This document shows, piece after piece, positions 4,962 through 18,324 of a stretch of DNA of 32,000 nucleotides (position 1 is its first letter; each line of letters starts with the position of its first letter). The translations under genes were made by a program, and so were the position numbers. The notes beneath the pieces were generated by a model. It was not told where the DNA came from, did not search any database, and saw only the letters and a list, made by a program, of their open reading frames with translations. Origin of the DNA: Georgenia sp. SYP-B2076 (lineage in GTDB: Bacteria > Actinomycetota > Actinomycetes > Actinomycetales > Actinomycetaceae); contig NZ_RXOZ01000037.1 of the NCBI RefSeq assembly GCF_003991205.1, forward strand, positions 177,379 through 209,378. Direction: 5' to 3'.

Positions 4962-5558
4962 ATGCCTACACCCGCAAAGGGTGCCCGTCTGGGCGGCAGC
5001 GCTGCGCACGAGCGGCTCATGCTGGCCAACCTGGCCACCGCACTGTTCGAGCACAAGAAGATCACCACCACGGAGCACCGCGCCCGGCGCCTGCGCCCGG
5101 TGGCCGAGAAGCTCATCACGCTCGCGAAGCGCGGTGACCTCTCCGCGCGCCGCCGCGTCCTGGCGACCCTGAGCCGCAAGGACATCGTCGCCGAGCTCTT
5201 CGAGCAGACGGCGCCGAAGTTCGCCGACCGCAACGGCGGCTACACGCGCATCACCAAGGTCGCCAACCGCAAGGGCGACAACGCCCCCATGGCGGTCATC
5301 GAGCTCGTGCTCGAGCCCGTGAGCCCGAAGCAGGCGACCGTGCGCGAGGCTGAGAAGGCCACCGAGCGCGCCGCCAAGGCGTCGGCTCCGGTCGAGGCGC
5401 CCGTGGCCGACGAGGCCCCCGCGGCCGACGCAGAGGCCCCCGAGGCTGAGGCCCCCGCGGCCGACGCCGCCGAGACCGAGGCCGTCGAGGCTGAGGCCCC
5501 CGCGGCCGACGCCGCCGAGGCCCCCGCCGCCGAGAAGGCGGAGGACAAGGAGGCCTGA
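4962..5558 (+). CDS. rplQ: 50S ribosomal protein L17 with an Ala/Glu/Pro-rich C-terminal extension
   Basis: The N-terminal 120 aa ([58 protein letters not shown]...GGYTRITKV) is canonical L17. An AGGAG lies upstream of the ATG. An acidic/alanine tail of about 70 aa follows. Confidence 0.95.
5445..5519 (+). repeat. In-frame tandem repeat inside the L17 tail
   Basis: The 30-nt string gctgaggcccccgcggccgacgccgccgag occurs identically at 5445-5474 and 5490-5519, a 45-nt period encoding [10 protein letters not shown]. Confidence 0.85.
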
Positions 5559-5576
5559 GCCTCCCTGCCCACGCTC

Positions 5577-5616
5577 GCGTGAAGGGCCCGGACCGCCTGG
5601 TCCGGGCCCTTCGCGC
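5577..5616 (+). terminator. rplQ operon terminator hairpin
   Basis: gaagggcccggacc (5581-5594), loop gcct, ggtccgggcccttc (5599-5612) form a perfect 14-bp stem. It is extendable by gcgt/gcgc to about 18 bp. It starts 19 nt after the rplQ stop. There is no U tail, which is common in high-GC actinobacteria. Confidence 0.6.
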
Positions 5617-5666
5617 ACCCCCGGGAAGCCGTTCGCCAGAGCCGGGCCGCGCCCTACGCTGGCGCC

Positions 5667-6500
5667 GTGAGCTCATCAGCGGGTGCCATGACGACGGGCA
5701 CGCCGACCGTCCTGCTCGTGCACGGGATCCGGGCGTCGTCGTCGATGTGGCGGCGTCAGGTCGACGCCCTCCGGGCGGCCGGCGTGCCCGCCGTCGCGCC
5801 GGACATGCCCGGGCACGGCAGCCGTGCCGGCGAACCGTTCACCGTCGACGGCGCGCTCGCGACCATCGAGGAGGTCGCCCGCCGTGTGGCGGCACCCGTG
5901 GTGGTCGCTGGCATGTCCATGGGCGGCTACCTCGCCCTGCACTGGGCCGCCCACACCCGGCGGCGGCCGGCCGCGGTGCTCGCGGCGTCGTGCAGCACCC
6001 AGCCGCAGGGGCTGCCGCTGTGGGCCTACCGGCGCCTCGCCCGCGCCATCGGCCGCCTCCCCGACGCCGGCGCCGGCCTGAGCGACGCGCTGGCGCGGCG
6101 CTTCCTGCCCGCGGACGCCCTCGCCGACGTGCTGGCCGGCGGGACGAACGTGGGCGTCATGGACCACGTCCTCGCGGGCATGGCCGGTGTTGACACGCTG
6201 GCGGACCTGCGCGCGATCGAGGCGCCCGTCTGGCTGGTCAACGGCCGCTGGGACCACTTCCGCGGCCACGAGCGCCGGTTCCTGCGTCAGTGTGCCGACG
6301 GGCGCCTCGTCGTCGTCCCGGGCGCCACCCACCTCGTCTCCCTCGTGCGGCCGGTCGCCTTCAACCGCGTCCTGCTGGACCTCGTCGAGGAGGTCCGCGC
6401 AGGCGGCGGTGGGCGGGACGGAGTCCGCACCGGCGGCGGCGGGCGGGACGGGGTCAGTGCCGGGGCGGGTGCGGGCCCGGCGGCAGCGCGTACGGCGTGA
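5667..6500 (+). CDS. Alpha/beta-fold hydrolase
   Basis: VLLVHGIRASSSMWRRQVDALRAAGVPAVAPDMPGHG, then the nucleophile-elbow-like GMSMGG, and a late H in PGATHLV. The start is ambiguous: GTG 5667 or ATG 5688. The C-terminus holds a 30-nt-period repeat (GGGGRDGVRT/GGGGRDGVSA, 6402-6455). It overlaps the convergent ABC ATPase gene by 47 nt. Confidence 0.75.
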   Translation: MSSSAGAMTTGTPTVLLVHGIRASSSMWRRQVDALRAAGVPAVAPDMPGHGSRAGEPFTVDGALATIEEVARRVAAPVVVAGMSMGGYLALHWAAHTRRRPAAVLAASCSTQPQGLPLWAYRRLARAIGRLPDAGAGLSDALARRFLPADALADVLAGGTNVGVMDHVLAGMAGVDTLADLRAIEAPVWLVNGRWDHFRGHERRFLRQCADGRLVVVPGATHLVSLVRPVAFNRVLLDLVEEVRAGGGGRDGVRTGGGGRDGVSAGAGAGPAAARTA

Positions 6501-7221
6501 CGACCGCACGCCGGCGGCCGCCCTCGCCGTACGTGATGGTCCGCACCTCCACGGCGTACAGCTCGGAGAGCGCGTCGTCGGTGAGCAGCGCGGCGGCGGC
6601 GCCGGTGCGCACGTCGCCCGCGCCCATCATCAGGACGGCGGAGTCGGCGAGGGACAGGGCGTGGTCGGGGTGGTGCGTGGTGAGCAGCACCGCCATGCCG
6701 TCCGCGACCAGCCGGCGCAGCAGCACCAGGATCCGGGCCTGGTTGTGCAGGTCCAGCCCGGTCGAGGGCTCGTCGAGCACGAGGGTCGGGCACTGGGAGG
6801 CCAGCGCGCGGGCGATCAGCACGAGCTGCTGCTCACCGCCGCTGAGCGTGGGGAACGCCCGGTCCCACAGGTGCGAGATCCCCACCCGGTCCATCGCGGC
6901 GAGCGCCGCGGCCCGGTCCGCGCGGCCGGGGGTCGAGAACATCCCGATGAGGCGCGTGCGTCCCATCACGACCATGTCGAGGGCGTCGTAGGCGAACGCG
7001 CCGCCCCGCGCCTGCGGGACGTACCCGACGGCGCCGTCGGTGGCGACGGTGCCCTCGCGCGGGGCCAGGAGCCCGGCGGCGCAGCGCACGAGCGTCGTCT
7101 TGCCCCGGCCGTTGGGCCCGAGCACGGCCGTGACGGATCCCGGTGCCACCCGGAAGCTCACCTCCCGGAAGAGCCAGCCTCCGCGCGGGTAGCGGAAGCC
7201 GAGGCGGTCGACCTCAAGCAC
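6454..7221 (-). CDS. ABC transporter ATP-binding protein (FecE/FhuC-like, iron-chelate/B12 class)
   Basis: Walker A GPNGRGKTT, signature LSGGEQQ and Walker B LVLDEPSTGLD are present. The GTG start overlaps the permease stop by 8 nt (GTGCTTGA). Confidence 0.9.
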   Translation of the reverse strand: MLEVDRLGFRYPRGGWLFREVSFRVAPGSVTAVLGPNGRGKTTLVRCAAGLLAPREGTVATDGAVGYVPQARGGAFAYDALDMVVMGRTRLIGMFSTPGRADRAAALAAMDRVGISHLWDRAFPTLSGGEQQLVLIARALASQCPTLVLDEPSTGLDLHNQARILVLLRRLVADGMAVLLTTHHPDHALSLADSAVLMMGAGDVRTGAAAALLTDDALSELYAVEVRTITYGEGGRRRAVVTPYALPPGPHPPRH

Positions 7222-8293
7222 TGTCCCAGATCCTGTCCCGGTTGCGGCGCAGCAGCACGAAGAAGGCCGGCGCCCCGACCAGCGCCGTGATGACCCCGAG
7301 CGGGATCTCCGCGGCCGTGGCCGTCCGCGCCAGGGTGTCGACGGCGATGAGATAGGCGCCGCCCGTGAGGAACGAGACCGGCAGCAGCACCCGGTGGTCC
7401 GGCCCCACCCACATCCGTGCCAGGTGCGGGACCACCAGCCCGACCCACGCCACGACGCCGCTGACCGCGACGCCCCCCGCGACGATGAGCGCGGCGGCGA
7501 CGAGCACGACCCACCTCATGCGGCCCGGCCGCAGCCCGAGCGCGGCGGCCTCCTCGTCCCCGAGGGACAGCACGTTGATGCGCCACCGCACGGCCACGAG
7601 GACCACCGTGCCCGCGAGGATCGGCACGACGGCGACCGCGAGCGTGGCGTAGGTGGCCGTGGCGACGCTGCCCAGCAGCCAGAACACGATCGCCGGCAGG
7701 GTCGTGTACGGGTCGGCGAGGTAGGTCAGCAGGGACACGAGGGCGGAGAAGAACGAGCCGGTCACCACCCCGCCGAGGACGACCATGAGCATCGAGGCGC
7801 CGCTGCGCCCGAGGGTGAGCAGGAACAGGAGGGTCAGGGCCCCGAGACCGAAGACGAACGCCCCTCCGACGAGGTACACGGTGCCCAGCCCGAGGAGCAG
7901 GGCGAGCGCCCCGCCGAACGACGCGCCCGCGGAGACCCCGATGATCTCCGGGCTGACGAGGGGGTTGCGGAAGGTCGCCTGCAGCGCGGCGCCGGCGATG
8001 CCCAGGCCGCCCCCGACGAGCAGGGCGAGCAGGATCCTCGGCAGGCGCACGAGCAGCACGATGTTCTGCTCGTTCCCGGCCGCGGGGCCGGCCGCCCCCA
8101 GCGCCCGGGCCGCCACGATCTGCGCGACGTCGGTCAGCGGGACCGGGAACCGGCCCACCGACAGCGCGACCAGGACCACCCCCACGAGGACCGCCGCCAT
8201 GACGAGGACCGGGAGGGCGGCCCGCCGCTGGTCGTCGTCCGATCGCCGGCGCCGCACCGCCCGGCCCGGCGCCCGGGCGTGGTCATCGGGCAT
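7214..8293 (-). CDS. FecCD-family ABC permease
   Basis: A multi-pass hydrophobic protein with the family-typical ...LQATFRNPLVSPEIIGVSAGASFGGALALLLG... and C-terminal GVITALVGAPAFFVLLRR. The ATG overlaps the binding-protein stop by 11 nt. Confidence 0.9.
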   Translation of the reverse strand: MPDDHARAPGRAVRRRRSDDDQRRAALPVLVMAAVLVGVVLVALSVGRFPVPLTDVAQIVAARALGAAGPAAGNEQNIVLLVRLPRILLALLVGGGLGIAGAALQATFRNPLVSPEIIGVSAGASFGGALALLLGLGTVYLVGGAFVFGLGALTLLFLLTLGRSGASMLMVVLGGVVTGSFFSALVSLLTYLADPYTTLPAIVFWLLGSVATATYATLAVAVVPILAGTVVLVAVRWRINVLSLGDEEAAALGLRPGRMRWVVLVAAALIVAGGVAVSGVVAWVGLVVPHLARMWVGPDHRVLLPVSFLTGGAYLIAVDTLARTATAAEIPLGVITALVGAPAFFVLLRRNRDRIWDSA

Positions 8294-9434
8294 CGAACTG
8301 TCCGTAGCCCGCCGAGCCGCCGTTGACCTCGGACCACAGGATCCGGCCCAGGTCCGCGTCCGTGGGCCGGTAGCCGTAGAGGAAGCCGTAGGCGTCGCGG
8401 ACGTCGTCCCGCAGGGGCCGGCCGTCGTCCCCGGGGAACACGATCCGGGAGAGCCAGCGCCACATCAGCGGGGACTCCTGGCCGGGCGGGTCCCACCGGT
8501 ACCCGCCCAGCGGCACCTTGTAGACGCGCCGCGACCGCACCGCGGACACGGGGCCCCACACCGCGTCGCCGTAGACGTCGTCGGGCATCGCCTCGTCGAA
8601 GTTGCCGAGCAGCACGATGTCGGGGTCCCAGCCGAGCACCTGCTCGACGTCCACCCCCACCATGCCCGGGCCCCGGACGCCGGTGGGCCCGGACGCCGGG
8701 TTCTCGGCGCCGACCAGCCGGATGTAGAAGTCGTTGTAGGTCCTCGGCCCGGCCACCTTGAGGCCGGCGGAGAAGCGGTTGAAATACAGGACCTTGGGCG
8801 CGGCGCCGGCCACCTTCGCGGTGCGCGCCTTCACCTCCCGCAGCGCGGCGTCGCTGCGGGAGATCATCTCCTTCGCGCGGTCCGGCTTGCCGAGGATGGT
8901 CGCGAACAGGGTCGTCCAGGTGTCGAGGTCGTCCTGGGTCCCGTAGGTGACGCCGAGCACCTTCAGCCCCGCGTTCTCCAGGGGGGCGATGATGCCCGTC
9001 CCCTCGTCGGCCCACTGCACGACCACGTCGGGCCGGAGCGCGAGGATGCTCTCCACGTTGGGGGTGAAGTCCTGCCCGGCCACGTCGTGGGCGATCCCGG
9101 TGGCCCTGGGGAACATCGTGGCCATGATCCCGTCGCGGATCGCCGTAAAGGACGCCTCGTTCATGCCCACCAGGTGGTCGGCGGAGGCGTCGACCGCGAT
9201 CGCGAGGGAGGCGGCCGGCATCGGCAGCGTGACGATCCTGGTGACGGGGCGGTCGAAGGTCAGCGTGGTGCCCCGCTGGTCCTGGACCGTGATCCCGCCG
9301 GCCGCGGTGGTCGCGGCGGGCTCCGCCCGCGACCCGCACGCCGAGAGGAGGCCGAGGCCCCCGAGCAGCGCGGCGCCCCTGAGGACCGAGCGCCGCGAGA
9401 TCGCCGGCAGCTCGCCGAAGGCCGGGGGACTCAT
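8283..9434 (-). CDS. ABC substrate-binding lipoprotein (periplasmic-binding-protein type 2, siderophore/B12 class) with a twin-arginine-like signal
   Basis: The start was chosen at MSPPAFGELPAISRRSVLRGAALLGGLGLLSACGS, which combines RR, an h-region and an LSAC lipobox. The body resembles FhuD/BtuF-type binders. The ATG at 9432-9434 overlaps the upstream gene's TGA (ATGA). Confidence 0.85.
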   Translation of the reverse strand: MSPPAFGELPAISRRSVLRGAALLGGLGLLSACGSRAEPAATTAAGGITVQDQRGTTLTFDRPVTRIVTLPMPAASLAIAVDASADHLVGMNEASFTAIRDGIMATMFPRATGIAHDVAGQDFTPNVESILALRPDVVVQWADEGTGIIAPLENAGLKVLGVTYGTQDDLDTWTTLFATILGKPDRAKEMISRSDAALREVKARTAKVAGAAPKVLYFNRFSAGLKVAGPRTYNDFYIRLVGAENPASGPTGVRGPGMVGVDVEQVLGWDPDIVLLGNFDEAMPDDVYGDAVWGPVSAVRSRRVYKVPLGGYRWDPPGQESPLMWRWLSRIVFPGDDGRPLRDDVRDAYGFLYGYRPTDADLGRILWSEVNGGSAGYGQFDAR

Positions 9435-10213
9435 GCGAGCATCCCGGCCGGCCCGGCCTCCGCGGCGGCGTTGACGATGTCCAGGTGGCGCCTCGTGTAG
9501 TGGCGCAGCGCCCGGACCTGCCGCTCGGTCACCCGGTCGCAGACCCACTCCCAGTGCATGGCCACCCAGTCACCCGCCCGCAGCGGGGAGCTGAGCCCGA
9601 GGCCGCCGATCGCGCGCTCGACCGTCTCGAGCTCGGGCTCGCCGAAGCCGAGCCGGCGCCCGTCCCAGGTGAGGTGCCGGGACTCCACGGCGACCCGGTC
9701 GCCGTGGAGGTGGACGACCCTGCCCCAGCGGATCCGGCACATGTCGAGCACGGTCAGGGCCTGCCCGGCCCGCCGGTCGTCGCCCAGCAGGCCCGTCCAC
9801 GGGTAGATGCAGAACACCGCGAAGCTGTGGTGCGGGACGCCCCCGGCGAGCACCCCGGCGGTGAGGTTGCCGAAGCGCGGGCCGGACCGGAACCGGAAGC
9901 GGTCCTCCATCGAGCTGCCGATCTTCGTCACGCCGACACGGTCCAGCCGGGGACTTCCGATCCAGTAGGCCTCGACGGCGCGCGGGTCGAGCGGGTCGGA
10001 GAGCCCCGTGGCCCCGGCGATGAGCTCGAGGTAGGGCCAGGCCCCGGCGAACTCGCGCGCCATGGCGCGCAGACCGCGGTCGTCGCCCCCGGTGCCGCTC
10101 TCGAAGAACGCCAGGTGGTCCGCCGGGCCGCAGTACCCGTGGTGGTTGGGCGGGAACGCGTACCGGGCGAACAGCACGGGGCCCGGCACGGCAGCGGACG
10201 GGGCCGTGGGCAT
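9431..10213 (-). CDS. Conserved hydrogenase-cluster protein of unknown function (I recall the name DUF6390; unverified)
   Basis: The 260-aa ORF starts MPTAPSAAVPGPVLFARYAFPPNHHGYCGPADHLAFFE... It lies 8 nt after the hypC stop and is stop/start coupled to the ABC binding protein. I recognise no catalytic motif. Confidence 0.7.
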   Translation of the reverse strand: MPTAPSAAVPGPVLFARYAFPPNHHGYCGPADHLAFFESGTGGDDRGLRAMAREFAGAWPYLELIAGATGLSDPLDPRAVEAYWIGSPRLDRVGVTKIGSSMEDRFRFRSGPRFGNLTAGVLAGGVPHHSFAVFCIYPWTGLLGDDRRAGQALTVLDMCRIRWGRVVHLHGDRVAVESRHLTWDGRRLGFGEPELETVERAIGGLGLSSPLRAGDWVAMHWEWVCDRVTERQVRALRHYTRRHLDIVNAAAEAGPAGMLA

Positions 10214-10221
10214 GTCGCCCC

Positions 10222-10470
10222 TCACCCGTCCGCGTCCCGACCGCCGCCCATGAGCTCGAGCCCCTCCATGGCGCGGGCCGCTCGGCCGGGGTCGATGACC
10301 TCCATGGCGAAGCCCATGTGGATGAGCACCCAGTCGCCGGGGCGGGGCGAGGGGCCGTCGAGCATGCCGAGGTTGATGGTGTCCCGCACGCCGCGCACGT
10401 CGGCGAGCGCGAGCATGCCGCCGTGGCCCTCCACGGCCTCGACGATCCTGCCCGGGATGCCTAGGCACAT
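10222..10470 (-). CDS. hypC: Hydrogenase assembly chaperone HypC/HybG/HupF
   Basis: MCLGIPGRIVEAVEGHGGMLALADVRGVRDTINLGMLD...GDWVLIHMGFAMEVI shows the canonical N-terminal MCLGIPG with the essential Cys2. The product is 82 aa. Confidence 0.93.
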   Translation of the reverse strand: MCLGIPGRIVEAVEGHGGMLALADVRGVRDTINLGMLDGPSPRPGDWVLIHMGFAMEVIDPGRAARAMEGLELMGGGRDADG

Positions 10471-10519
10471 CGCTGTCTCCGTCCTTCGGGTCGCTGAGCC
10501 TGCCGCCCTCGGTGGTCGG

Positions 10520-10627
10520 TCACATCCGCAGGAGCCGGTACTCGCGCTTGAGCGCGGGCAGCTCCTTGCGGGCCAGGTACACGAAGCCGACAGCGCCCGC
10601 CGCCGCCAGCGCCGCCTTGACCGGCAT
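10520..10627 (-). CDS. Tiny single-pass membrane protein (I recall 'DUF6893 family small protein' from hydrogenase loci; unverified)
   Basis: The 35-aa product is MPVKAALAAAGAVGFVYLARKELPALKREYRLLRM, with AGGAG 7 nt upstream of the ATG. An in-frame upstream GTG at 10729 also has a GGAGG 8 nt upstream and would give 69 aa, so the start is unresolved. Confidence 0.5.
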   Translation of the reverse strand: MPVKAALAAAGAVGFVYLARKELPALKREYRLLRM

Positions 10628-10764
10628 CGTCACGCTCCTGCCGGCCGTCCGCGCCGCCCGCCCGGGCGGCATCACCCCGCCCGCGGCCGACGTCCTGATC
10701 CGCCCGACCAACGTCCGCACGTCCTTCACCGTCCCCGCCTCCTGTCCGTGAGTGGGCCCGCCGC

Positions 10765-10968
10765 TCAGCCCGGCGGCAGGTTGGGCATTGCCGTGGAGAC
10801 GGGGTCGTGCTTGCGCGGGTTGATCCCCGTGGAGCGGCGCGCGTCGACGGTGTCGTCGGCGTGGTGGCCGCGCTGCTCCTCCACGGGGCCGCTGTTGCCC
10901 TGGTCCACCCCCTTGACGTGCGCCGACGCGTCGGGAGCGACGTCGCGCCTGCCTACCCGGATGCTCAT
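10765..10968 (-). CDS. Small hydrophilic hypothetical protein (67 aa)
   Basis: MSIRVGRRDVAPDASAHVKGVDQGNSGPVEEQRGHHADDTVDARRSTGINPRKHDPVSTAMPNLPPG. A strong AGGGAGGG lies 3 nt upstream of the ATG, 11 nt after the preceding gene's stop. It has no Cys and is probably disordered. Confidence 0.55.
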   Translation of the reverse strand: MSIRVGRRDVAPDASAHVKGVDQGNSGPVEEQRGHHADDTVDARRSTGINPRKHDPVSTAMPNLPPG

Positions 10969-10979
10969 GGACCCTCCCT

Positions 10980-11564
10980 TCAACGGTGCTCGGTGAGCTC
11001 GGCGAAGAACTGGTCGATGGCGGGCCACACCCGGCTCCCGCCGGACAGGCCGCGCCACTCACGCCGCACGACGGCGACCAGCCGGAAGCAGTCGTCGACC
11101 GGGACCAGCCAGTGGTGCCGGCTCCCGCGGGCGGTGTTGACCAGGAAGGCCTCCACCTCCGGGGTCAGCCCGGCCAGCTCGGGGCGGCGGCCCACCACGG
11201 TCCGCCACGCCAGCGGGTCGACCTCCCACTGGGTGGAGCCGAGGGGGCTCGGGTAGTGGGCGACCACCGCGCCGCCCGCCCCGCGGACGAAGTACGCCAG
11301 GCCCACCGGGACACCGAGCTCCTCGGTCGAGACCTCGCCCAGGCGCACGCGGCGCTCCGGCACGAGGCGGTAGTGGCCGAGGCTGGCGACGTCCCGGACG
11401 AAGAGCAGCGAGCACGGCTGGCAGGCGCACATCACGTCGCCCCGCTCGGTGTCGAGCAGGTGGCGGTGCCGCTCGCGCAGCGGGGCGCTGCACACGTCGC
11501 ACCGCTCGGCGAGCAGCGGCGCCGCCCCGCCGCGGACCACCCGCTCCAGCGCCCCGCTGCTCAC
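10980..11564 (-). CDS. Conserved hydrogenase-cluster protein with a 4-Cys (zinc-ribbon-like) N-terminus (I recall DUF5947; unverified)
   Basis: The 194-aa product contains CDVCSAPLRERHRHLLDTERGDVMCACQPC, read as CxxC-X20-CxCxxC. Its GTG start overlaps the NifU-like gene's stop (GTGA). Confidence 0.7.
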   Translation of the reverse strand: MSSGALERVVRGGAAPLLAERCDVCSAPLRERHRHLLDTERGDVMCACQPCSLLFVRDVASLGHYRLVPERRVRLGEVSTEELGVPVGLAYFVRGAGGAVVAHYPSPLGSTQWEVDPLAWRTVVGRRPELAGLTPEVEAFLVNTARGSRHHWLVPVDDCFRLVAVVRREWRGLSGGSRVWPAIDQFFAELTEHR

Positions 11565-12118
11565 GCCGATCCCCGCAGGGCCGCGGGGCGCTGGAACAGC
11601 GCCTCCACCGGGATCACCGTCGGCCCGCCCCTCGGCGGCTGGACCGGCTCCACCTCGGTCAGCTCCGGGGCCAGCGCGAGCACGGCGTCCGACACCGTCT
11701 GCTCGAGGGTGACGGCCGACGACGAGCAGCTCCCGCAGGCGCCGGAGAGCTGGACGTGGGCGACCCCGGCGTCGATGTCGACGAGCTCGACCCGCCCGCC
11801 GTGGGACTCGATGTAGGGCCGCACCGCGTCGAGCGCCTGCTCCACCCGGTCCTGGACGGGGTCGGGATGGATGTCGTGGACGACCATGAGGTGAGCCACC
11901 AGCTGGTCCCGGGCGAGGTCGGCGCGCAGCGGCTCGGGCGCCACCGCCAGGACGCGTCGCAGGCCTTCCCCGTAGATCTCCGCCAGCGTCCGGATGGCCT
12001 CGACCGCCGCCTCGGAGGTCGCGCCGGGTACCTGCTCGACCACGTCCAGCAGCTCGTCGAACCGGTCGAGCAGCTGCCCGACCGCCGCGTCGTCCAGGCG
12101 CGGGGCCGACTCACCCAT
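11561..12118 (-). CDS. NifU-like Fe-S protein (HhyE-like candidate redox partner or Fe-S scaffold)
   Basis: The C-terminal half RPYIESHGGRVELVDIDAGVAHVQLSGACGSCSSSAVTLEQTV matches the NifU C-terminal (Nfu) fold with CxxC. The ATG overlaps the hhyL stop by 8 nt. Confidence 0.75.
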   Translation of the reverse strand: MGESAPRLDDAAVGQLLDRFDELLDVVEQVPGATSEAAVEAIRTLAEIYGEGLRRVLAVAPEPLRADLARDQLVAHLMVVHDIHPDPVQDRVEQALDAVRPYIESHGGRVELVDIDAGVAHVQLSGACGSCSSSAVTLEQTVSDAVLALAPELTEVEPVQPPRGGPTVIPVEALFQRPAALRGSA

Positions 12119-13910
12119 GGGATGCCCCGAACATCGGCGAGTGCGTCTGCGAGATGGTGCGGCCCCCGCCGACGTACATGTGCACCCCGCACGGCAGGCA
12201 CGGGTCGAAGCTGCGGACGGCGCGCATGATGTCCACGCCGCGGAACTCATCCGGCCCGTTCTCCTCGAAGATCGGCATGTCCTGGACGGCGTCCTCGTAC
12301 GGCCCCGGGGTGCCGTAGCTGTCCCGCGGGCTGCCGTTCCACGGCGTCGGTGGGTAGGGGTGGTAGTTGGCGATCTTGCCCTCGCGGATGACGAGGTGGT
12401 GGGAGAGCACGCCGCGGACGGCCTCGTGGAACCCGCAGCCGATGGCCTCCTCCGGCACGTCGAACGTCTGGAACACCTTCTGGTCACCCCTGCGCACCCG
12501 CGTCAGCGCCTCCTCGAGGAAGTACAGGGCCATGCCGGCGGCGTAGGCGATGAAGTAGACCCGGGCCCGGTCCCGCTCGATCGCGTTCGACCACGGCGGG
12601 ATCCGCCACTCCAGCGTCGACTCCGGCAGCGAGGCGCTGCGCGGCAGGGAGATCTGCACGCCCGAGCCGGTCGAGCGCACGTACGGCGTCTGCACCTTGC
12701 CGGCGAGCGCCGTCGCGTAGAGCCGCGCGAACGGGCCGCCACCGGTGTCCAGCGCGAGGTGGTCCCCCGTGCGCCGGTCGAACCAGCGGGGGCTCATCAC
12801 CCAGCTGTACCGGCCGTCGAAGTCACGCTTGCCGGGGGCGGGCAGCGTCGTCTGGTTCCACGGGTGGCGCATGTCCACCGGGTTGCCGAGCGGGTCATGG
12901 GTGACGAACGGCGGCTCGGCGACCCAGTCCTCGTAGTAGGAGCTACCCAGCAGGATCCGGATGCCGAGGTTGATGTCGACGAGGTTGGAGGTGACGAGCT
13001 CGCCGTCGACGATGACGCCCGGGGTGACGAACATCGCGTTGCCCCACTCGTTCATCGTCTCGTACCGGTAGTCCACGACCTCGGGGTCCTGGAACGCCCC
13101 CCAGCAGCCCAGCAGGACGCGTCGCCGACCGACCTCCTCGTAGCCGGGGAGCGCCGCGTAGAAGAAGTCGAACACGTCGTCGTTCATGGCGACGGCCTGC
13201 TTGACGAAGTCGATGATCGACATCAGCCGGGAGAGGTAGTCGGTGAACAGCGTGGGGGTGGGCATCGTCCCCACCCCGCCGGGGTACAACGTCGAGGGGT
13301 GGACGTGGCGGCCCTCCATGAGGCAGAACATCTCCCGGGTGACCCGGCTCATGTGCAGCGCCTGCTTGTAGACCTCGCCCTCGAAGGGGTTGAAGGCGCG
13401 CATGATGTCGGCGATGGTCCGGTAGCCATGCATGCCGGCGTTCGGTGCCGGCGTGTTCTCCGCCCTGGCCAGGACGCTGGGGTTGGTCGCCTTGACCATG
13501 GCCTCGCAGAAGTCGACGAAGACGAGGTTGTCCTGGAAGAGGGTGTGGTCGAAGAGGTACTCCGCGGCCTCGCCGAGGTTGACGATCCACTCGGCCAGCT
13601 TGGGCGTCTTGATCCCGTAAGCCATCTGCTGGGCGTAGTTGGAGCACACGGTGTGGTTGTCGCCGCAGATGCCGCAGATCCGGCTGGTGATGAAGCCGGC
13701 GTCGCGCGGGTCCTTGCCCTTCATGAAGACCGAGTAGCCGCGGAACAGCGAGGAGGTGCTGTGGCACTCGGCGACCCGCTGGTTCTGGAAGTCGATCTTT
13801 GTGTAGATGCCGAGGTTGCCGATGATCCGGGTGATCGGGTCCCAGGACATCTCGACAAGCTGTTCCTGCTCCTGGCCCGGTCCGGCGCCCTTGCGGTCGG
13901 TGACGGTCAT
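12111..13910 (-). CDS. hhyL: [NiFe]-hydrogenase large subunit, group 1h (formerly group 5, high-affinity)
   Basis: The 599-aa product has N-terminal FITSRICGICGDNH and C-terminal SFDPCLPCGVH followed by a 22-aa cleavable tail. These are the published L1/L2 signatures of group 5/1h as I recall them. The ATG overlaps the hhyS stop (ATGA). Confidence 0.93.
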   Translation of the reverse strand: MTVTDRKGAGPGQEQEQLVEMSWDPITRIIGNLGIYTKIDFQNQRVAECHSTSSLFRGYSVFMKGKDPRDAGFITSRICGICGDNHTVCSNYAQQMAYGIKTPKLAEWIVNLGEAAEYLFDHTLFQDNLVFVDFCEAMVKATNPSVLARAENTPAPNAGMHGYRTIADIMRAFNPFEGEVYKQALHMSRVTREMFCLMEGRHVHPSTLYPGGVGTMPTPTLFTDYLSRLMSIIDFVKQAVAMNDDVFDFFYAALPGYEEVGRRRVLLGCWGAFQDPEVVDYRYETMNEWGNAMFVTPGVIVDGELVTSNLVDINLGIRILLGSSYYEDWVAEPPFVTHDPLGNPVDMRHPWNQTTLPAPGKRDFDGRYSWVMSPRWFDRRTGDHLALDTGGGPFARLYATALAGKVQTPYVRSTGSGVQISLPRSASLPESTLEWRIPPWSNAIERDRARVYFIAYAAGMALYFLEEALTRVRRGDQKVFQTFDVPEEAIGCGFHEAVRGVLSHHLVIREGKIANYHPYPPTPWNGSPRDSYGTPGPYEDAVQDMPIFEENGPDEFRGVDIMRAVRSFDPCLPCGVHMYVGGGRTISQTHSPMFGASHG

Positions 13911-15019
13911 CGGGGGCCTCCTGCGGTGGTGGGGACGTCGGGGCGCCAGCGCGGGTCGTAGCCGCTGGTGAGCTCGCCGCGGTTGTGCCGCCACCGCGGT
14001 TCCTTGTTCAGGGCGGTGTTGGTGATCTCGCGCATCTTGCGGACGAAGACGCCGTAGGGCTTGCCGAGCGCGGCGGAGAGGTAGCCGCCCGGCGGGACGT
14101 CCATGAACGGCATGAACTTGTCCGGGAAGCCGGGCATCGTGCAGCCGATGCAGATGCCGCCGACGTTGGGGCACCCGCCGATGCCGTGCATCCAGCCCCG
14201 CTTGGGCACGTTGCAGTTGACGACAGGTCCCCAGCACCCGACCTTGACCTGGCACTTGGGGGAGTTGTAGTCGTGGGCGAAGTCGGACTGCTCGTAGTAC
14301 CCGGCCCGGTCGCACCCCTCGTGCACCGTCTTGCCGAAGAGCCACTGCGGGCGCAGCAGGTTGTCCAAGGGGGGCGGCGGCGCCGCCCCGGCCGCGTGGT
14401 AGAGGATCCAGGCCAGGGTCTCCATGAAGTTCTCCGGCTGCACCGGGCAGCCGGGGACGTTGACGATCGGCAGGTCCCCAGCCGAGCGGAAGTCCCAGCC
14501 CAGGTAGTCCGCCAGCCCCATGGACCCGGTGGGGTTCCCCGCCATGGCATGGATGCCGCCGTACGCTGCGCACGTGCCGATGGCGACCACGGCCCACGCC
14601 TTGGGGGCGAGCCGGTCGATCCACCAGTTGAGGGTGAGTGGCTCGCCCGTGGCGAGGTCGTTGCCGAAGGACGTCCAGTAGCCCTCGCCGTTGATGTTCT
14701 CGTTCGGGATGGACCCCTCGATGACGAGGATGAACGGCGCCAGCTCGCCGCGGGCCGCAGCGCGGAAGGGCGCGAGGAACTCCTCGCCGCCCAGGGTGGG
14801 GGAGAGGACCTTGTTGTGCAGGTTGACCTTCGGCAGGCCGGGGATGAGCCCGGTCACGACGTCCTCGATCGACGGCTGGCTGGAGGCCGTGATGGAGACG
14901 GTGTCGCCGTCGCAGCTCATGCCCTCCGAGATCCAGAGGATGTCGATCTCGGGGAAGCCGGCGCGGTCCTCATAGGCGGCGCGCCGGTCACCCGCCGGGG
15001 TCGTGGCGGTCGTGGTCAT
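13907..15019 (-). CDS. hhyS: [NiFe]-hydrogenase small subunit, group 1h, no Tat signal
   Basis: The 370-aa product shows Cys patterns GMSCDGD, GTCAAYGG, GCPVQP, HEGCDR, KCQVKVGCWGPVVNCNV and GGCPNVGGICIGCTMPGFPD. The N-terminus MTTTATTPAGDRRAAYED lacks a hydrophobic h-region. AGGAGA lies upstream. Confidence 0.93.
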   Translation of the reverse strand: MTTTATTPAGDRRAAYEDRAGFPEIDILWISEGMSCDGDTVSITASSQPSIEDVVTGLIPGLPKVNLHNKVLSPTLGGEEFLAPFRAAARGELAPFILVIEGSIPNENINGEGYWTSFGNDLATGEPLTLNWWIDRLAPKAWAVVAIGTCAAYGGIHAMAGNPTGSMGLADYLGWDFRSAGDLPIVNVPGCPVQPENFMETLAWILYHAAGAAPPPPLDNLLRPQWLFGKTVHEGCDRAGYYEQSDFAHDYNSPKCQVKVGCWGPVVNCNVPKRGWMHGIGGCPNVGGICIGCTMPGFPDKFMPFMDVPPGGYLSAALGKPYGVFVRKMREITNTALNKEPRWRHNRGELTSGYDPRWRPDVPTTAGGPR

Positions 15020-15621
15020 CTCTGTCTCCTTCGTGGGCCTGGGCGCCGGTCGCCGTGGGCGGCCTCCGGCCGCGCGGCGGTGGTCTCGTGCGAGGGGCCG
15101 GGTGGCCCGGTGGCATCGCCGCGACGCTGCGGGCGGGCCGCGGCCCGCACGGCCGCGCCGGCCGCCTCGGTCCTGGCGAGCTCGACGACGAGGGGGACGG
15201 CCTCCTCGACGGCGGCCCGCACCGGCTCGGACAGCCCCAGGACCTCCTCGAGGACCTGCGGCTGGCACCCGACCACCAGCACCCGATCGATCGTCCCGCC
15301 GAGCCCGCGCAGGGCGCCCAGGACCACGTCGGGGCTCATCGCGTGGGCGTCGACGGTGCCCGGGGCGTCACCGGCCCGCCGGCTGGCGTCGAGGACGGCG
15401 ACGGTGCCCGGCGCCCGGCCGAGCGGGACCGCGTCGACGAGCACGAGCGTGGAGTACCGGCCCTCGAGGAGCTCGAAGGCGAGGTGGATGCCGCGGATGC
15501 CGTAGTCGGCGACGTCGACACCGTCCGGGACGGCGGCGCCCTGCAGCCGCCGCACCACCTCGACCCCGAACCCGTCGTCGCCGAGGAAGACGTTGCCGAT
15601 CCCCGCCACCAGCACGCTCAT
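15016..15621 (-). CDS. Hydrogenase maturation endopeptidase (HybD/HupD family) with a roughly 50-aa basic/Pro-rich C-terminal tail
   Basis: MSVLVAGIGNVFLGDDGFGVEVVRRL..., DYGIRGIHLAFELLEGRYSTLVLVDA and VDAHAMSP give the metal-ligand D/D/H pattern of the family. There are ATGA overlaps at both ends, with the 486-aa ORF and with hhyS. Confidence 0.85.
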   Translation of the reverse strand: MSVLVAGIGNVFLGDDGFGVEVVRRLQGAAVPDGVDVADYGIRGIHLAFELLEGRYSTLVLVDAVPLGRAPGTVAVLDASRRAGDAPGTVDAHAMSPDVVLGALRGLGGTIDRVLVVGCQPQVLEEVLGLSEPVRAAVEEAVPLVVELARTEAAGAAVRAAARPQRRGDATGPPGPSHETTAARPEAAHGDRRPGPRRRQR

Positions 15622-17078
15622 GCCGTGCCTCCGGAGCCTCCGGCGCCCCCGGTGTCTCCCGCGGCGACCGTGCCGGTGCCGACTGCGGGCGGCCCGTCGC
15701 CGTCGAGGGGTTCGACCTCGTCGGGGGCGAAGTAGTGGAACCGCCCGTACCACCTGTGCGGCTCGCTGGAGGGGTCTTCCAGGGTGACGGCGACGTGCCG
15801 GGCGTCGTCGACGTCGCGGAAGATCCCCTCGACCCGCGCCGTGCGGCCGGCGAGGAACATGTCGTGCGCGTCCGAGCCGCGGGCGCGCGGCCGCAGCCGC
15901 ACCCTGCTGCCCCGGGCGACGCGGACCCCGCCGACCGTGACCGTCTCGGACCCCGGGGAGACGGCGGGTTCCCACCGCGGCGGGGCGGCCGCGGCACCGT
16001 CCGGCGGGGCCGCGTGGGGCCGGAGCGACCGGATCGCGCCGTGCAGCCGCGCCATCACCTCCGGTGGCATCGCCTCGGCGCGGTCGACGATCGCGGCCGT
16101 CCGCGGGTCGGTCGCGCGGGCCTCGCGCTTCTCCCCGTCGGTGAGCGTCAGGGTGCGCAGCGAGAGGATCTCGTCGATCTCGGCGGCGTCGAACAGGTCC
16201 CCGGGGCTCTCCGGGGCGACCCGGGGGTGGTCGTACAGGATGATCGGCGAGGACAGGACGAGGTCGCGGCTGCCGGGCTCGCCGACCAGGACCGGGAACG
16301 TGCGGATGTTGGCGCACTGCCCTGCCGCCGCCTCCGCCCACGCCGGAGGCTCGAGCAGCGACAGGAACGACCCGGCGTCAAGGGCCAGCAGGGTGTGCGT
16401 CGCGATGAGGCTCGAGCGCAGCGCCACCGGCCGGGCCGCCGCCGGCGGCGGGCCGGCCGCCGCGTTCTCGGTGCGCACGCGCAGGCGGTGGAGCGGGAAC
16501 GGGGTGGGCATCCGCTCGAGGGAGAGCTGCGCGCGCGCCGTGAGGGGGCGGCGCCGGCGCACGACCCGGCCGACCGCCCGGCCCTCGCCGTCCGCCACGG
16601 GCTCGACGTCCTCGCCGCCGGGGGCCGCGACGTCGAGCGTGCGCGGCCGGGCGCGCAGCCCACCCAGGGGCACGGCGACGTCGGCCTCCCGCGGGACGGC
16701 CTCCTCGAAGCTCAGCTCGGTGCGGCCGCCCACCTCGAGGCGCTCGACCCGGTGGAACGACCCGTCCGGCCGGCGCTCCTCGATGTCGCGGGTCTGCAGC
16801 TGGAGGTAGCGCACGCGGACGCGGAGGGTCGCGGCGTCCGGCGCCTCGAGCAGGCACTCGGTCTGCTGCCACCACGACTCGCTGGAGCCCGCGACGCCGT
16901 CCACGGCGCCGCCGCGGGCGTCCACCCAGGCGCGCGGCGCGAGGATCCCGAACTGCCAGCGGACCTGGTTCTTCCCGGACGACTTGCGGTACGGGTAGAG
17001 GACGTAGCCCTCGTAGAGGACGGCGTCGGCGACGGTCAGGGCGCGCGCGAACGGGTCGTGGGGAACCGGATCGACCAC
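15618..17078 (-). CDS. 486-aa conserved hypothetical protein embedded in the hydrogenase operon
   Basis: The GTG start is preceded by GGGAGGGAGG with 6-nt spacing. The N-terminus reads LYEGYVLYPYRKSSGKNQVRWQFGILAPRAW. It has only 2 Cys, no TM segment, and a Gly-rich tail. The stop overlaps the protease ATG. Confidence 0.75.
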   Translation of the reverse strand: MVDPVPHDPFARALTVADAVLYEGYVLYPYRKSSGKNQVRWQFGILAPRAWVDARGGAVDGVAGSSESWWQQTECLLEAPDAATLRVRVRYLQLQTRDIEERRPDGSFHRVERLEVGGRTELSFEEAVPREADVAVPLGGLRARPRTLDVAAPGGEDVEPVADGEGRAVGRVVRRRRPLTARAQLSLERMPTPFPLHRLRVRTENAAAGPPPAAARPVALRSSLIATHTLLALDAGSFLSLLEPPAWAEAAAGQCANIRTFPVLVGEPGSRDLVLSSPIILYDHPRVAPESPGDLFDAAEIDEILSLRTLTLTDGEKREARATDPRTAAIVDRAEAMPPEVMARLHGAIRSLRPHAAPPDGAAAAPPRWEPAVSPGSETVTVGGVRVARGSRVRLRPRARGSDAHDMFLAGRTARVEGIFRDVDDARHVAVTLEDPSSEPHRWYGRFHYFAPDEVEPLDGDGPPAVGTGTVAAGDTGGAGGSGGTA

Positions 17079-17132
17079 CTCGCACCTCCCTCCCGCTTCT
17101 GCGGCGTCGTCGCCCGGCGCGGGGACGTCCGC

Positions 17133-17993
17133 CTAGGGCTCCGCCGCCACCGCCTCCCGGGCCGGCGCACGGGCGGCGAGCCAGCCGAGCCAGCCGCCGA
17201 ACCCCTCGCCGGTGGTCGCCGAGACGACCCGGGCGTCCGCCCGGGGGTTGAGCCGGCGGGCCTGCTCGACGCACCGCTCGACGTCGAAGTCGACGTAGGG
17301 GAGCAGGTCGGCCTTGTTGATGAGCACGAGGTCGGCCGCGGCGAACATGTGCGGGTACTTCAGCGGCTTGTCGTTGCCCTCGGTGACCGAGATGATCACG
17401 ACCCGGGCGGCCTCGCCGAGGTCGAAGAGCGCCGGGCACACGAGGTTGCCCACGTTCTCGATGAAGAGGTACGAACCCGGCCGCGGCGCGAGGCGGTCCA
17501 GCCCCCGGCGGAGCATGTCGGCGTCGAGGTGGCAGCCGGCCCCGGTGTTGATCTGGACGACGGGGGCGCCGGTCGCGCGGATCCGGTCGGCGTCGAGGAG
17601 CGTCTCCTGGTCCCCCTCGACGACGGCGACGCCGCGGTCGCCGGCCAGCTCCCGGATCGTCCGCTCGAGCAGGGTCGTCTTGCCCGCGCCCGGCGAGCTC
17701 ATCACGTTGACGGCGAAAATCTCCCGGCCCTCCAGCCAGCCCCGGTTGCGGGCGGCCAACAGGTCGTTCTTGGCGAGGAGGTTCTGCTCGAGGACGAGGG
17801 TCTCCGGACGCGCGACCTCGCCGCGCCCGTGGTCGTGGGGGTGGTCGTGCGCGTGGTCGTGGGGGTGGTCGTGCTCGTGGTCGTGCGTGTGGCCGTGAGG
17901 GTGGTCGTGCGCGTGCTCATGCTCGCGCTCCTGGTCGTCGGCGGTCGACACGCGGACCCCGGCCGCGTCGCTGCAGCCACACGTCGAGCACAT
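17133..17993 (-). CDS. hypB: Hydrogenase nickel-incorporation GTPase HypB
   Basis: It has the N-terminal MCSTCGC (CxxCGC Ni site), a His-rich stretch, the P-loop SSPGAGKTT, ENVGNLVCPA and NKADL. Confidence 0.95.
   Translation of the reverse strand: MCSTCGCSDAAGVRVSTADDQEREHEHAHDHPHGHTHDHEHDHPHDHAHDHPHDHGRGEVARPETLVLEQNLLAKNDLLAARNRGWLEGREIFAVNVMSSPGAGKTTLLERTIRELAGDRGVAVVEGDQETLLDADRIRATGAPVVQINTGAGCHLDADMLRRGLDRLAPRPGSYLFIENVGNLVCPALFDLGEAARVVIISVTEGNDKPLKYPHMFAAADLVLINKADLLPYVDFDVERCVEQARRLNPRADARVVSATTGEGFGGWLGWLAARAPAREAVAAEP
17829..17921 (-). repeat. His-rich (HD/HP/HE dipeptide) coding repeat in hypB
   Basis: It encodes HEHAHDHPHGHTHDHEHDHPHDHAHDHPHDH. The DNA shows reiterated gtggtcgtg(g/c) units. 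Confidence 0.85.
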
Positions 17994-17994
17994 C

Positions 17995-18324
17995 TCACAC
18001 CACCCTCACCGAGGTGACCGCGAGCTCCCGGCCGCTGCGGATCGCGACGTCGGCGCTGCCGCACGGGCACAGCAGGATCGGGTCGGAGATCTCGAAGTCG
18101 CGACCGCAGCTGCGGCACGTGGCCGCCCCGGCCGGCTCCTCGATGTTGAGCTGGGCGCCGGCGAGCGTCGTGCCCTCTGCCACCACGTCGAAGCAGAACC
18201 GCACGGCCTCAGGGACGACTCCCGAGAGCCGCCCGATCGTCAGGTTCACGGCAGTGACCTTCCGGCCGCCGGTGCGGTCCAGCACCGCGTCGACGACGCT
18301 CTGGGTGAGAGACAGCTCATGCAT
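17995..18324 (-). CDS. hypA: Hydrogenase nickel metallochaperone HypA
   Basis: It has the N-terminal MHELS (MHE Ni-binding motif) and the Zn site CRSCG...CPCG. The product is 109 aa. The stop lies 1 nt from the hypB ATG. Confidence 0.92.
   Translation of the reverse strand: MHELSLTQSVVDAVLDRTGGRKVTAVNLTIGRLSGVVPEAVRFCFDVVAEGTTLAGAQLNIEEPAGAATCRSCGRDFEISDPILLCPCGSADVAIRSGRELAVTSVRVV

Follow-up and report, generated by a model that had tools for sequence, protein, structure and literature searches.

The window, the whole 32,000-nucleotide stretch of DNA analyzed from the soil bacterium Georgenia sp. SYP-B2076, carries a minus-strand train of 15 genes that spans 11.9 kb, starts with hypA and ends with the ATPase gene of an ABC importer, the largest gap being 54 nt. 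From first to last, the genes of the train and the gene that follows it are:

17995-18345, minus strand: hypA, which opens the train (Pfam HypA, E 3.1e-31)
17133-17993, minus strand: hypB (Pfam cobW/HypB, E 3e-26)
15618..17078, minus strand: conserved protein of 486 aa without a Pfam or NCBIfam family (homologues of 42-50% identity in most surveyed hhy loci)
15016..15621, minus strand: HycI/HupD-type maturation protease (tblastn with the proteases of L001 and Georgenia ruanii, 48-80% identity; the G. ruanii counterpart matches Pfam HycI)
13907..15019, minus strand: hhyS, small subunit (Pfam Oxidored_q6 and NiFe_hyd_SSU_C; start ATG 15019)
12111..13910, minus strand: hhyL, group 1h/5 [NiFe]-hydrogenase large subunit (Pfam NiFeSe_Hases; L1 and L2 motifs; 94% identity to G. 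ruanii)
11561..12118, minus strand: hhyE, NifU-like putative iron-sulfur protein (Pfam NifU, E 1.1e-20; start from the G. ruanii comparison)
10980..11564, minus strand: DUF5947 protein (Pfam PF19372, E 8e-67)
10520..10968, minus strand: two small conserved ORFs of about 66 and 67 aa in the DUF5947-hypC interval (tblastn with G. ruanii gene calls, 80% and 60% identity)
10222..10470, minus strand: hypC, 82 aa (Pfam HupF_HypC, E 7.9e-22)
9431..10213, minus strand: DUF6390 protein, 260 aa (Pfam PF19927, E 8.5e-90)
8283..9434, minus strand: substrate-binding lipoprotein, 383 aa, class III fold (Pfam PF01497 Peripla_BP_2, E 2.9e-24)
7214..8293, minus strand: FecCD-family permease, 359 aa (Pfam PF01032, E 7.6e-81, profile positions 2-311 of 311)
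6454..7221, minus strand: ATPase, 255 aa, GTG start, final gene of the train (Pfam PF00005 ABC_tran, E 3.4e-23)
5667-6500, convergent: alpha/beta hydrolase gene, next after the ATPase and not kept in other loci

The group 1h/5 motifs of HhyL, the large subunit of this atmospheric-hydrogen enzyme, were read in the translation as TSRICGICGDNH and SFDPCLPCGVH. The name hhyE was taken from PMC6883350.

Seven junctions within the train overlap. Direct reading of the sequence confirmed the overlaps of 4, 11 and 8 nt that the first-pass annotation had described at the importer end. The ATGA at 9431-9434 combines the TGA stop of the DUF6390 gene (9431-9433) with the ATG start of the binding-protein gene (9432-9434), the binding-protein stop (8283-8285) follows the permease ATG (8291-8293), and the permease stop (7214-7216) follows the ATPase GTG (7219-7221). 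However, the importer is not translationally fused to the hydrogenase genes, as had been stated; these are ordinary stop/start codon overlaps and the genes are separate. Because such overlaps are the rule along the whole train and are common in high-GC operons, the overlap by itself is unremarkable. A scan of the locus (74% G+C) for consensus promoters and terminators gave no usable signal; the importer and hydrogenase genes are probably co-transcribed. What goes beyond chance expectation is the neighborhood kept in other genomes.

The binding protein, permease and ATPase form a complete type II (BtuCD/FecCD-type) ABC importer, of the class that takes up siderophores, haem and B12. The Pfam matches and coordinates agree with the earlier assignment of a FecCD/type-2 binding-protein system at the distal end of the hypA train. 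The N-terminus of the binding protein has a twin-arginine (Tat) signal and a lipobox (SRRSVLRGAALLGGLGLLSAC). A Foldseek search with its AF2 model (pLDDT 87) returned 4OVK as the best match (TM 0.77/0.89), along with 4hn9, the molybdate binder MolA (3psa, rank 4) and H. pylori CeuE/NiuB with Ni-His (4ls3, E 4e-18). The structural genomics entry 4OVK, from Veillonella parvula, also ranks first by sequence (33% identity, E 1.2e-56) and, like the Georgenia protein, contains the GxYRWD motif and most of the conserved aromatic residues. However, it has Lys and Ser in place of H87 and H116, two histidines that are invariant in the hydrogenase-linked clade and, on comparison with non-linked relatives, specific to it.

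The possibility was considered that the cargo is cobalamin or another corrinoid, haem, molybdate/tungstate or an organic cofactor, used by DUF6390 or in another hydrogenase-linked step. The top NCBIfam match of the permease is BtuC, the ATPase matches a corrinoid ABC ATPase, MolA is a structural neighbor of the binding protein, and another FecBCD set lies next to F420 genes in G. ruanii. However, the binding protein matched no NCBIfam equivalog (top score 62 bits, cut-off 325), the permease fell under every equivalog cut-off (e.g., BtuC, 213 bits vs. 461), and the BtuC/corrinoid-type scores are all far too low. Moreover, a search of the window and 5 related loci for riboswitches, of the cobalamin or any other kind, was negative, and to our knowledge group 1h hydrogenases have no need for B12, haem or Mo. 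Cargoes of this kind are considered rather unlikely. With no cobalamin riboswitch and BtuF/BtuC scores far under the cut-offs, cobalamin itself, and with it a B12 role of the importer, is unlikely.

A survey of the neighborhoods of orthologues had been proposed with the first-pass annotation, and the association was strongly borne out when the loci of the best 80 relatives of the binding protein in species-representative genomes were analyzed. Hydrogenase-cluster genes (hhy/hyp) lie beside 71 of these 80, although the loci are not independent phylogenetically and, because each scan took the best 80 matches, over-represent proteins closely related to those of Georgenia. The hhyL gene is no more than 10 kb away in 57 of the 80, and DUF6390 adjoins the importer in 69. 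The taxa include Micrococcaceae, Microbacteriaceae, Nocardioidaceae, Aeromicrobium, Kribbella, Ornithinimicrobium, an Ilumatobacteraceae MAG and a Mycobacteriales MAG. The linked binding proteins group as a single clade in an NJ tree, and the non-linked relatives fall outside it.

The 71 linked loci have at least 5 different gene arrangements, indicating that the adjacency survived rearrangements. Among the best 80, 13 are codirectional as in the window, 50 are divergent, 3 are convergent and others have the importer beside hypA. The divergent importers, mainly those of Arthrobacter and Pseudarthrobacter, form an operon separate from DUF6390, so that a common transcript is not what has been conserved. 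The conserved feature is adjacency to hypC-DUF6390, and in L002, L166 and L167 the hypC-DUF6390-importer unit lies apart from the structural genes. The coupling of importer and hydrogenase is not accidental; the importer clade is co-inherited with Actinomycetota [NiFe]-hydrogenase clusters, and in particular with their hypC-DUF6390 pair. In line with the first-pass annotation, the searchable literature yielded no description of the coupling. A table of M. smegmatis hydrogenase and hyp genes gives the hhy-cluster genes without any named transporter (PMC2799521).

In nearly all related loci, DUF6390 is immediately preceded by hypC. The AF2 model of DUF6390 (pLDDT 86) runs from a helical domain through a beta-barrel to a long helix, and its C-terminal region can be aligned to HypC with an hhalign probability of 77% (E 2e-5). 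When DUF6390 was used as the anchor, the best 80 matches yielded 64 informative metagenome contigs, 61 of which have an ABC importer directly 3' of DUF6390. The same sampling bias applies here. The pattern was also seen in 8 of 8 loci that were looked up individually. Taken together, the two surveys indicate that the conserved unit is hypC-DUF6390-importer.

The importer following DUF6390 is of the FecBCD type on 12 contigs and Fbp/Afu-like on 49, and the two never occur on one contig. This second importer in most related clusters was absent from the earlier account. It takes the same place after hypC-DUF6390 as the FecBCD type; the two are mutually exclusive, and it is presumably the functional equivalent. 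However, it is non-homologous: the receptor is of the SBP_bac_1/11 type, the ATPase contains TOBE_2, and the permease, of about 550 aa, is a fused double BPD_transp_1 protein. Its genes are usually convergent and not codirectional. The tyrosine pair that marks true ferric-binding proteins is missing from its receptor, whose top family matches, phosphonate and polyamine binders, score far under the cut-off; an argument from a shared iron cargo is therefore weak. The receptor has invariant Arg and Lys residues and is similar to proteins that bind phosphonate, polyamine and sugar phosphate, features that would fit an anionic organic ligand.

The importer could also serve general iron-siderophore uptake and lie next to the hydrogenase island by chance, without a dedicated role in biogenesis. 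Sources annotate the family as 'iron complex transport system', and the frequency of stop/start overlaps in high-GC genomes is compatible with chance. In the window, the hydrogenase island has been inserted between rplQ and truA, so its neighbors could be passively co-mobilized. IdeR/Fur-regulated ferric-siderophore importers (FhuD-, FecB-, CeuE- and YiuA-type FecBCD) belong to the same three-component family and have the same fold. The nearest non-hydrogenase relatives of the binding protein (Pseudonocardia, Streptomyces; 46-55% identity) have IdeR boxes, which were found with 3-4 mismatches immediately upstream of the genes in three cases (L072, L074 and L078), none of them hydrogenase-linked. 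However, no IdeR box was found upstream of the linked importers in the binding-protein-anchored loci, and none with 4 or fewer mismatches in 718 kb of DUF6390-anchored loci and the window. The linked clade also differs in its two own histidines, its location in hyp/hhy clusters and the absence of siderophore synthesis or utilization genes near the importer. Moreover, the adjacency persists across the different arrangements in several Actinomycetota families, and the importer keeps with hypC-DUF6390 even where the structural genes lie elsewhere. General uptake is thus regarded as very unlikely; the importer would instead be expressed alongside the hydrogenase and not under general iron-starvation control. 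Other IdeR boxes in the binding-protein-anchored loci lie about 10 kb off, by unrelated genes. Profile matches of the window genes included no metallophore biosynthesis genes, as originally noted.

Since the importer travels with hydrogenase clusters in many actinobacteria, it probably supplies the enzyme with metal. Tentatively, the importer may bring in a chelated transition metal for building the hydrogenase, with iron slightly favored; both the import of metal and its use by the hydrogenase are what we infer. Regarding the cargo, an iron chelate was given the most weight, a nickel chelate the next most and everything else the least. Iron would be passed on the cytoplasmic side towards HypC/DUF6390 and HhyS/HhyE Fe-S assembly. 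The iron regulation of the nearest non-linked relatives, the 'iron(III)-type' architecture of the alternative importer, and the likeness of DUF6390 to HypC and its occurrence with hypD/hypE in other clusters are consistent with an iron cargo. Canonical Ni importers (NiCoT, NikA-like, ECF Nik/Cbi) lie beside these importers in 4 loci (L029, L064, L134, L168), suggesting a complementary cargo and tipping the balance slightly to iron. However, apart from the missing tyrosine pair, hydrogenase clusters classically encode nickel, not iron, transporters (HoxN, HupN). The gain of two invariant histidines and the lost IdeR control could also reflect a change to nickel, and an iron importer moving with a mobile hydrogenase island would be less obviously useful than a nickel importer.

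By analogy, a nickel complex (Ni-(His)2 or Ni-carboxylate) might be imported in a NiuBDE-like manner and supply HypA/HypB for the insertion of nickel into HhyL, a possible route although short of a probable one. The Helicobacter precedent invoked earlier is sound, as NiuBDE (CeuE/FecDE; H. pylori, H. mustelae) is a FecCD-type nickel importer (PMC5140060). It has the same three-part architecture (class III binding protein, FecCD permease, ATPase), and it serves [NiFe]-hydrogenase and urease with Ni-(L-His)2 as ligand and without dedicated metallophore genes. However, its binding protein has about 20% identity to that of Georgenia (E 5e-5 by sequence) and no orthology, the niu genes lie outside hydrogenase operons, and niuB is often unlinked from niuDE. 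The place of CeuE/NiuB among the top structural neighbors and the histidines and absent IdeR boxes that mark the linked clade speak for nickel. In L029 a NiCoT gene overlaps the ATPase stop in an operon divergent from hypA, and in L064 the order is NiCoT-hypA-binding protein; by guilt by association, both would be nickel modules. A co-transferred nickel importer would also be evolutionarily sensible for a mobile hydrogenase island. However, the likeness to NiuB is no better than that to haem, siderophore or molybdate binders, a second nickel importer would be redundant where canonical ones occur in the same clusters, and the usual neighbor is hypC-DUF6390, not hypA/hypB. Moreover, we know of no nickel importer of the Fbp/Afu type, which fills the same position in most clusters.

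Encoding a metal transporter with its client enzyme would be a feature shared with HoxN/HupN NiCoT, NikABCDE and ECF NikMNQO. However, these belong to other transporter classes and, where present, are added to the DUF6390-associated importer and do not replace it. NiCoT, NikA-like and CbiM/PDGLE systems are present in some related clusters.

The importer forms the distal end of a minus-strand train of 15 genes that runs from hypA to the ABC ATPase:

17995-18345, minus strand, hypA
17133-17993, minus strand, hypB
15618-17078, minus strand, conserved 486-aa protein between hypB and the protease gene, with no Pfam or NCBIfam family
15016-15621, minus strand, HycI-type protease
13907-15019, minus strand, hhyS
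12111-13910, minus strand, hhyL
11561-12118, minus strand, hhyE (NifU-like)
10980-11564, minus strand, DUF5947
10520-10968, minus strand, two small ORFs
10222-10470, minus strand, hypC
9431-10213, minus strand, DUF6390
8283-9434, minus strand, Peripla_BP_2 binding protein
7214-8293, minus strand, FecCD permease
6454-7221, minus strand, ABC ATPase

The HhyL translation contains both the L1 motif TSRICGICGDNH and the L2 motif SFDPCLPCGVH, which, by the definitions reported by Constant et al. (2011), are the signatures of group 1h/5 large subunits. The Pfam matches of the accompanying hhyS, hhyE and hyp genes identify the context as an Hhy cluster. Almost all hhy clusters of the survey have kept the 486-aa protein, at 42-50% identity. 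Both the binding protein and the DUF6390 protein of the window have a counterpart with 100% identity in Georgenia sp. SYP-B2076. The first-pass annotation had described the importer as translationally fused to the hydrogenase operon, and the three junctions on which this was based, when read from the sequence, were exact: ATGA at 9431-9434 between DUF6390 and the binding-protein gene, then overlaps of 11 nt and 8 nt within the importer. The word "fused" overstates them. The train has seven overlapping junctions, and none of its gaps exceeds 54 nt; because stop/start overlaps are the norm throughout the 15 genes, the DUF6390/binding-protein junction represents ordinary operon architecture. It is reasonable to infer that the importer is co-transcribed with the hydrogenase genes. 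A consensus scan of 5500-19500, uninformative at the 74% G+C of the window, returned no promoters and three weak terminator-like sites, two of them within the permease gene.

The importer is a type II ABC system (FecCD/BtuCD type) with a receptor, a permease and a cognate ATPase. The receptor has the Peripla_BP_2, class III two-lobe fold (Pfam E 2.9e-24); its AF2 model (pLDDT 87) matched 177 PDB chains in Foldseek at E <= 0.001, and all listed top matches have this fold. The N-terminus carries a twin-arginine (Tat) signal and a lipobox, as expected of a Gram-positive receptor lipoprotein. The permease matches PF01032 over profile positions 2-311 of 311 and is full length (E 7.6e-81), and the ATPase matches PF00005 (E 3.4e-23), with GPNGRGKTT and LSGGEQQ read in its sequence. 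By sequence, the importer is a generic family member that scores below every curated NCBIfam cut-off. Among solved structures, the closest to the receptor were 4ovk and 4hn9, structural-genomics proteins without a known ligand, followed by the molybdate binder MolA and the Ni-His-bound CeuE/NiuB of H. pylori, and then by haem and siderophore binders with similar scores.

The mechanistic precedent that had been pointed out in Helicobacter is real: nickel import by the FecCD-type system NiuBDE is proven, and it supplies urease and hydrogenase (PMC5140060). The Georgenia system is likewise of the FecCD type, although its receptor is not orthologous to NiuB. Orthology to NiuB/CeuE (HP1561) was rejected: phmmer gave an E of only 5e-5, identity is about 20%, and haem and siderophore binders score level with NiuB. 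A PDB query with the receptor N-lobe alone, directed at the nickel-binding residues of NiuB, returned WD-repeat noise and no CeuE alignment. Receptor residues E128 and E264 are invariant, outgroup included, and are the putative counterparts of NiuB Glu110 and Glu236 (PMC5140060), one permease-docking glutamate in each lobe.

Species-representative genomes, one for each species, were scanned with an alignment built from 23 relatives of the binding protein, and the best 80 loci were kept and searched by tblastn with all hydrogenase-cluster proteins of the window. The first-pass annotation had proposed to ask how often orthologues of the binding protein lie near hydrogenase genes, and the answer favours the coupling: a hydrogenase-cluster gene was found in 71/80 loci, DUF6390 in 69/80 and hhyL within 10 kb in 57/80, counts that, in this survey as in the one made from DUF6390, come from the best 80 matches in related lineages and describe a clade, not independent events. 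Nine loci had no hydrogenase gene; they were either short contigs or the relatives furthest removed (46-57% identity). The linked receptors, i.e., those encoded beside hydrogenase-cluster genes, formed one clade in a neighbour-joining tree built without bootstrap; those of Pseudonocardia, Streptomyces, Nocardia and Pelomicrobium fell outside.

The arrangement varied within this clade. DUF6390 and the importer were codirectional, as in Georgenia, in 13 loci (Nocardioidaceae, Marmoricola, Aeromicrobium, Ornithinimicrobium, Lapillicoccus and an Ilumatobacteraceae MAG), divergent over 120-370 bp in 50, mostly from Arthrobacter, Pseudarthrobacter and Paenarthrobacter, and convergent in three. The importer adjoined hypA/hypB in five related loci (L029, L061, L064, L065 and L070). 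In Kribbella sindirgiensis (L035, 5623-9826) it is divergent from hypC and another [NiFe]-hydrogenase, comprising a Fer4_22 protein, an Oxidored_q6 small subunit and a short large subunit, with DUF6390 and a P-type ATPase nearby. Since this hydrogenase differs, the importer link is not strictly confined to group 1h. The Pseudarthrobacter sp. N5 locus (L057, 6346-13029) retained DUF6390 and the importer, the hhy genes were absent within 10 kb, and an upstream IS21 IstB gene may mark a disrupted or relocated cluster.

In the window, rplQ (4962-5558) and truA (19229-20137) flank a block at 5667-19203 that comprises an alpha/beta hydrolase gene, the importer, the hhy/hyp genes and a ROK-family gene. 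Because rplQ and truA usually lie close together after rpoA, the block looks like an inserted island. Two of its genes were rejected as members of the module, homologues being found in 0/170 related loci for each: the alpha/beta hydrolase (5667-6500) and the ROK-family gene (18442-19203), which immediately precedes hypA in the same orientation and is probably outside the conserved cluster. Near the island are tandem DUF5709 paralogues (20201-20731 and 20786-21304) and an FdhD/NarQ sulfurtransferase gene (21461-22384). At the start of the window, 12-2174 encodes a LuxR-type regulator of 720 aa.

A DUF6390 alignment was then used to scan metagenome contigs, and 64 among the best 80 had enough downstream sequence. 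An ABC importer adjoined DUF6390 in 61/64, mostly starting or ending within about 100 bp. It was of the FecBCD type in 12 contigs and Fbp/Afu-like in 49; the two never occurred together. Eight gene-context look-ups agreed with the contig survey. Furthermore, in three related loci (L002, L166 and L167) hypC, DUF6390 and the importer are located apart from the structural genes. From the surveys and these three loci, the conserved unit is therefore hypC-DUF6390-importer, of which the FecBCD type is a minority variant. In the plasmid collection, DUF6390 was found only in one Mycobacterium intracellulare and one Sulfobacillus plasmid, both in hydrogenase clusters, where it follows hypD and hypE-tatA, respectively, with no adjacent ABC importer; the triad is thus not universal.

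The alternative importer has the FbpABC/AfuABC architecture and is non-homologous to the FecBCD type. The receptor belongs to SBP_bac_1/11, the permease (about 550 aa) is a fused double BPD_transp_1 protein, and the ATPase carries TOBE_2. This importer directly follows DUF6390 in most of the clusters L084-L170 (for example, 8777-12378 in L085 and 7788-11513 in L168). The tyrosine pair of ferric-binding proteins is missing from its receptor, in which Arg and Lys residues are invariant; because of this, and because the family matches are weak and mixed, the "iron(III)" label is unreliable.

HypC is a maturation chaperone that carries iron. With hhalign, the C-terminal segment of DUF6390 could be aligned, at a probability of 77% and E 2e-5, with the core of HypC and its GDWV..H motif, consistent with the C-terminal beta-barrel plus helix of the AF2 model. 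DUF6390 appears to be a two-domain protein, with an N-terminal helical domain and a HypC-like C-terminal domain. Invariant residues are C28 (in the HGYCGP motif), H129 and C159 in the helical domain, and H220, C225 and H243 in the C-terminal part. No solved structure matched DUF6390 over its whole length.

The conserved context supports a dedicated coupling of importer and hydrogenase, as had been suggested, and makes it quite probable that the importer serves hydrogenase biogenesis. Its cargo was considered next. The window, together with five related loci, gave no Rfam match at gathering score, and the ideas of a B12 and a NiCo riboswitch were therefore dropped. Cobalamin, one of the cargoes entertained earlier, is unlikely: besides the missing riboswitch, a BtuFCD importer was rejected on scores below cut-off (BtuF 25.7 vs 234, BtuC 212.9 vs 461). 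In three non-linked relatives, an IdeR box with 3-4 mismatches to the 19-mer consensus TTAGGTTAGGCTAACCTAA immediately precedes the binding-protein gene (position 9861 in L072, 2564 in L074 and 9922 in L078). None lay upstream of the linked importers in the binding-protein-anchored loci, where the other boxes were about 10 kb off beside unrelated genes, and none at <=4 mismatches occurred in the 718 kb of DUF6390-anchored loci plus the window. An IdeR-regulated ferric-siderophore importer was rejected, since the iron operator is absent at the linked importers and the siderophore-receptor cut-offs were not reached (FecB 33.9 vs 320, ferrichrome 20.6 vs 374, enterobactin 19.4 vs 205).

An iron complex is the foremost candidate, at somewhat under an even chance. 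The nearest relatives are iron-regulated, the importer that takes the same position in other clusters is of an iron type, and the partners are hypC and the HypC-like DUF6390. A nickel complex is a tentative second candidate: hydrogenase clusters as a rule carry nickel transporters, NiuBDE provides a precedent, and the same regulatory comparison indicates that iron regulation was lost in the linked clade. Furthermore, travel of the importer with a mobile island makes evolutionary sense if the cargo is nickel. Four receptor positions were at least 95% conserved in the linked clade only (71 linked vs 7 outgroup proteins). The most striking, H87 (mostly R/V in the outgroup) and H116 (S/G/T), are histidines that would suit nickel; F221 and G257 complete the four. 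All or most outgroup proteins also have the other conserved residues, those shared with all seven including GGYRWD 310-315, Y217, Y305, W141 and W269 as well as E128 and E264. Canonical Ni/Co importers lie beside DUF6390-type ABC importers in four related loci:

13059-14171 in L029 (Cryobacterium), NicO/NiCoT gene, with a 4-nt overlap between its start and the ATPase stop
1173-2315 in L064, NicO-hypA-binding protein, the binding-protein and ATPase genes being truncated there
1053-4522 in L168, NikA-like receptor (203 bits vs cut-off 393) and two permeases
14471-17088 in L134, ECF CbiM-PDGLE-CbiQ-CbiO, immediately preceding the Fbp-like operon

That some of these clusters also encode separate, canonical importers of nickel argues for iron, and the NiCoT-hypA-importer groupings, taken as association, argue for nickel. 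Some other cargo, or none, is rather unlikely. We infer this ranking of iron, nickel and other.

If the cargo is iron, the triad could be a dedicated delivery line for the [NiFe] active site, a proposal that is improbable as it stands. The importer would take up an iron complex, DUF6390, in which a Cys/His-rich helical domain is joined to the HypC-like one, would accept the metal, and HypC/HypD would obtain it from DUF6390 to assemble Fe(CN)2CO. The FecBCD-type and Fbp/Afu-like importers would have been recruited independently to this same task.

The component parts are of known kinds. What is new is that a distinct clade of importers accompanies [NiFe]-hydrogenase clusters, those of group 1h and occasionally others, together with the close association of this clade with DUF6390 and the replacement of the FecBCD type by a non-homologous importer at the same position. 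A search of freely accessible full-text literature found neither a paper on DUF6390 nor one that describes a transporter in hhy clusters, and a search on NiuBDE in Actinobacteria and on group 1h with ABC transporters found no description of the coupling. For M. smegmatis, the hhy-cluster genes include no transporter in the published table, which is one of hydrogenase and hyp genes (PMC2799521).

The importer, co-inherited with maturation genes, is a concrete and deletable candidate for a metal supply line, and it offers the first functional handle on DUF6390, an uncharacterised protein of thousands of hydrogenase clusters. Group 1h hydrogenases are the main biological sink of atmospheric H2 and sustain dormant soil bacteria; to our knowledge, the acquisition and routing of metal for the enzyme in these aerobes are poorly known. 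If the cargo is nickel, the NiuBDE principle holds for soil actinobacteria as well as for gastric Helicobacter. An iron cargo would bear on the origin of the active-site iron, and the delivery line, if true, would reveal where aerobic hydrogen scavengers obtain that iron, a source so far undefined. If the cargo is neither metal, the triad is still a useful genomic marker for cluster annotation.

In Georgenia ruanii (L083), a second, paralogous Peripla_BP_2/FecCD/ABC_tran set directly follows the first at 11891-14912. Between the two sets, the permeases and the ATPases share about 40% identity. An F420 ligase and a luciferase-like gene come after the second set, which the strain of the window does not have. 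In the Arthrobacter loci, only two back-to-back promoters were seen in the divergent intergenic region, with no operator common to the hypA and importer promoters and no Nur or Zur box recognised by eye. The importer leader sequences of these loci matched no Rfam family. The importer promoter, TTGACA-17 nt-GATCCT/GATGCT, lies at about 9900-10000 in L019, L022, L034 and other Arthrobacter loci. Downstream of it, one subgroup has kept CTGTGAAGAACCTACGCACAG, with 5-bp inverted arms, and a second subgroup has an importer leader of about 100 nt.
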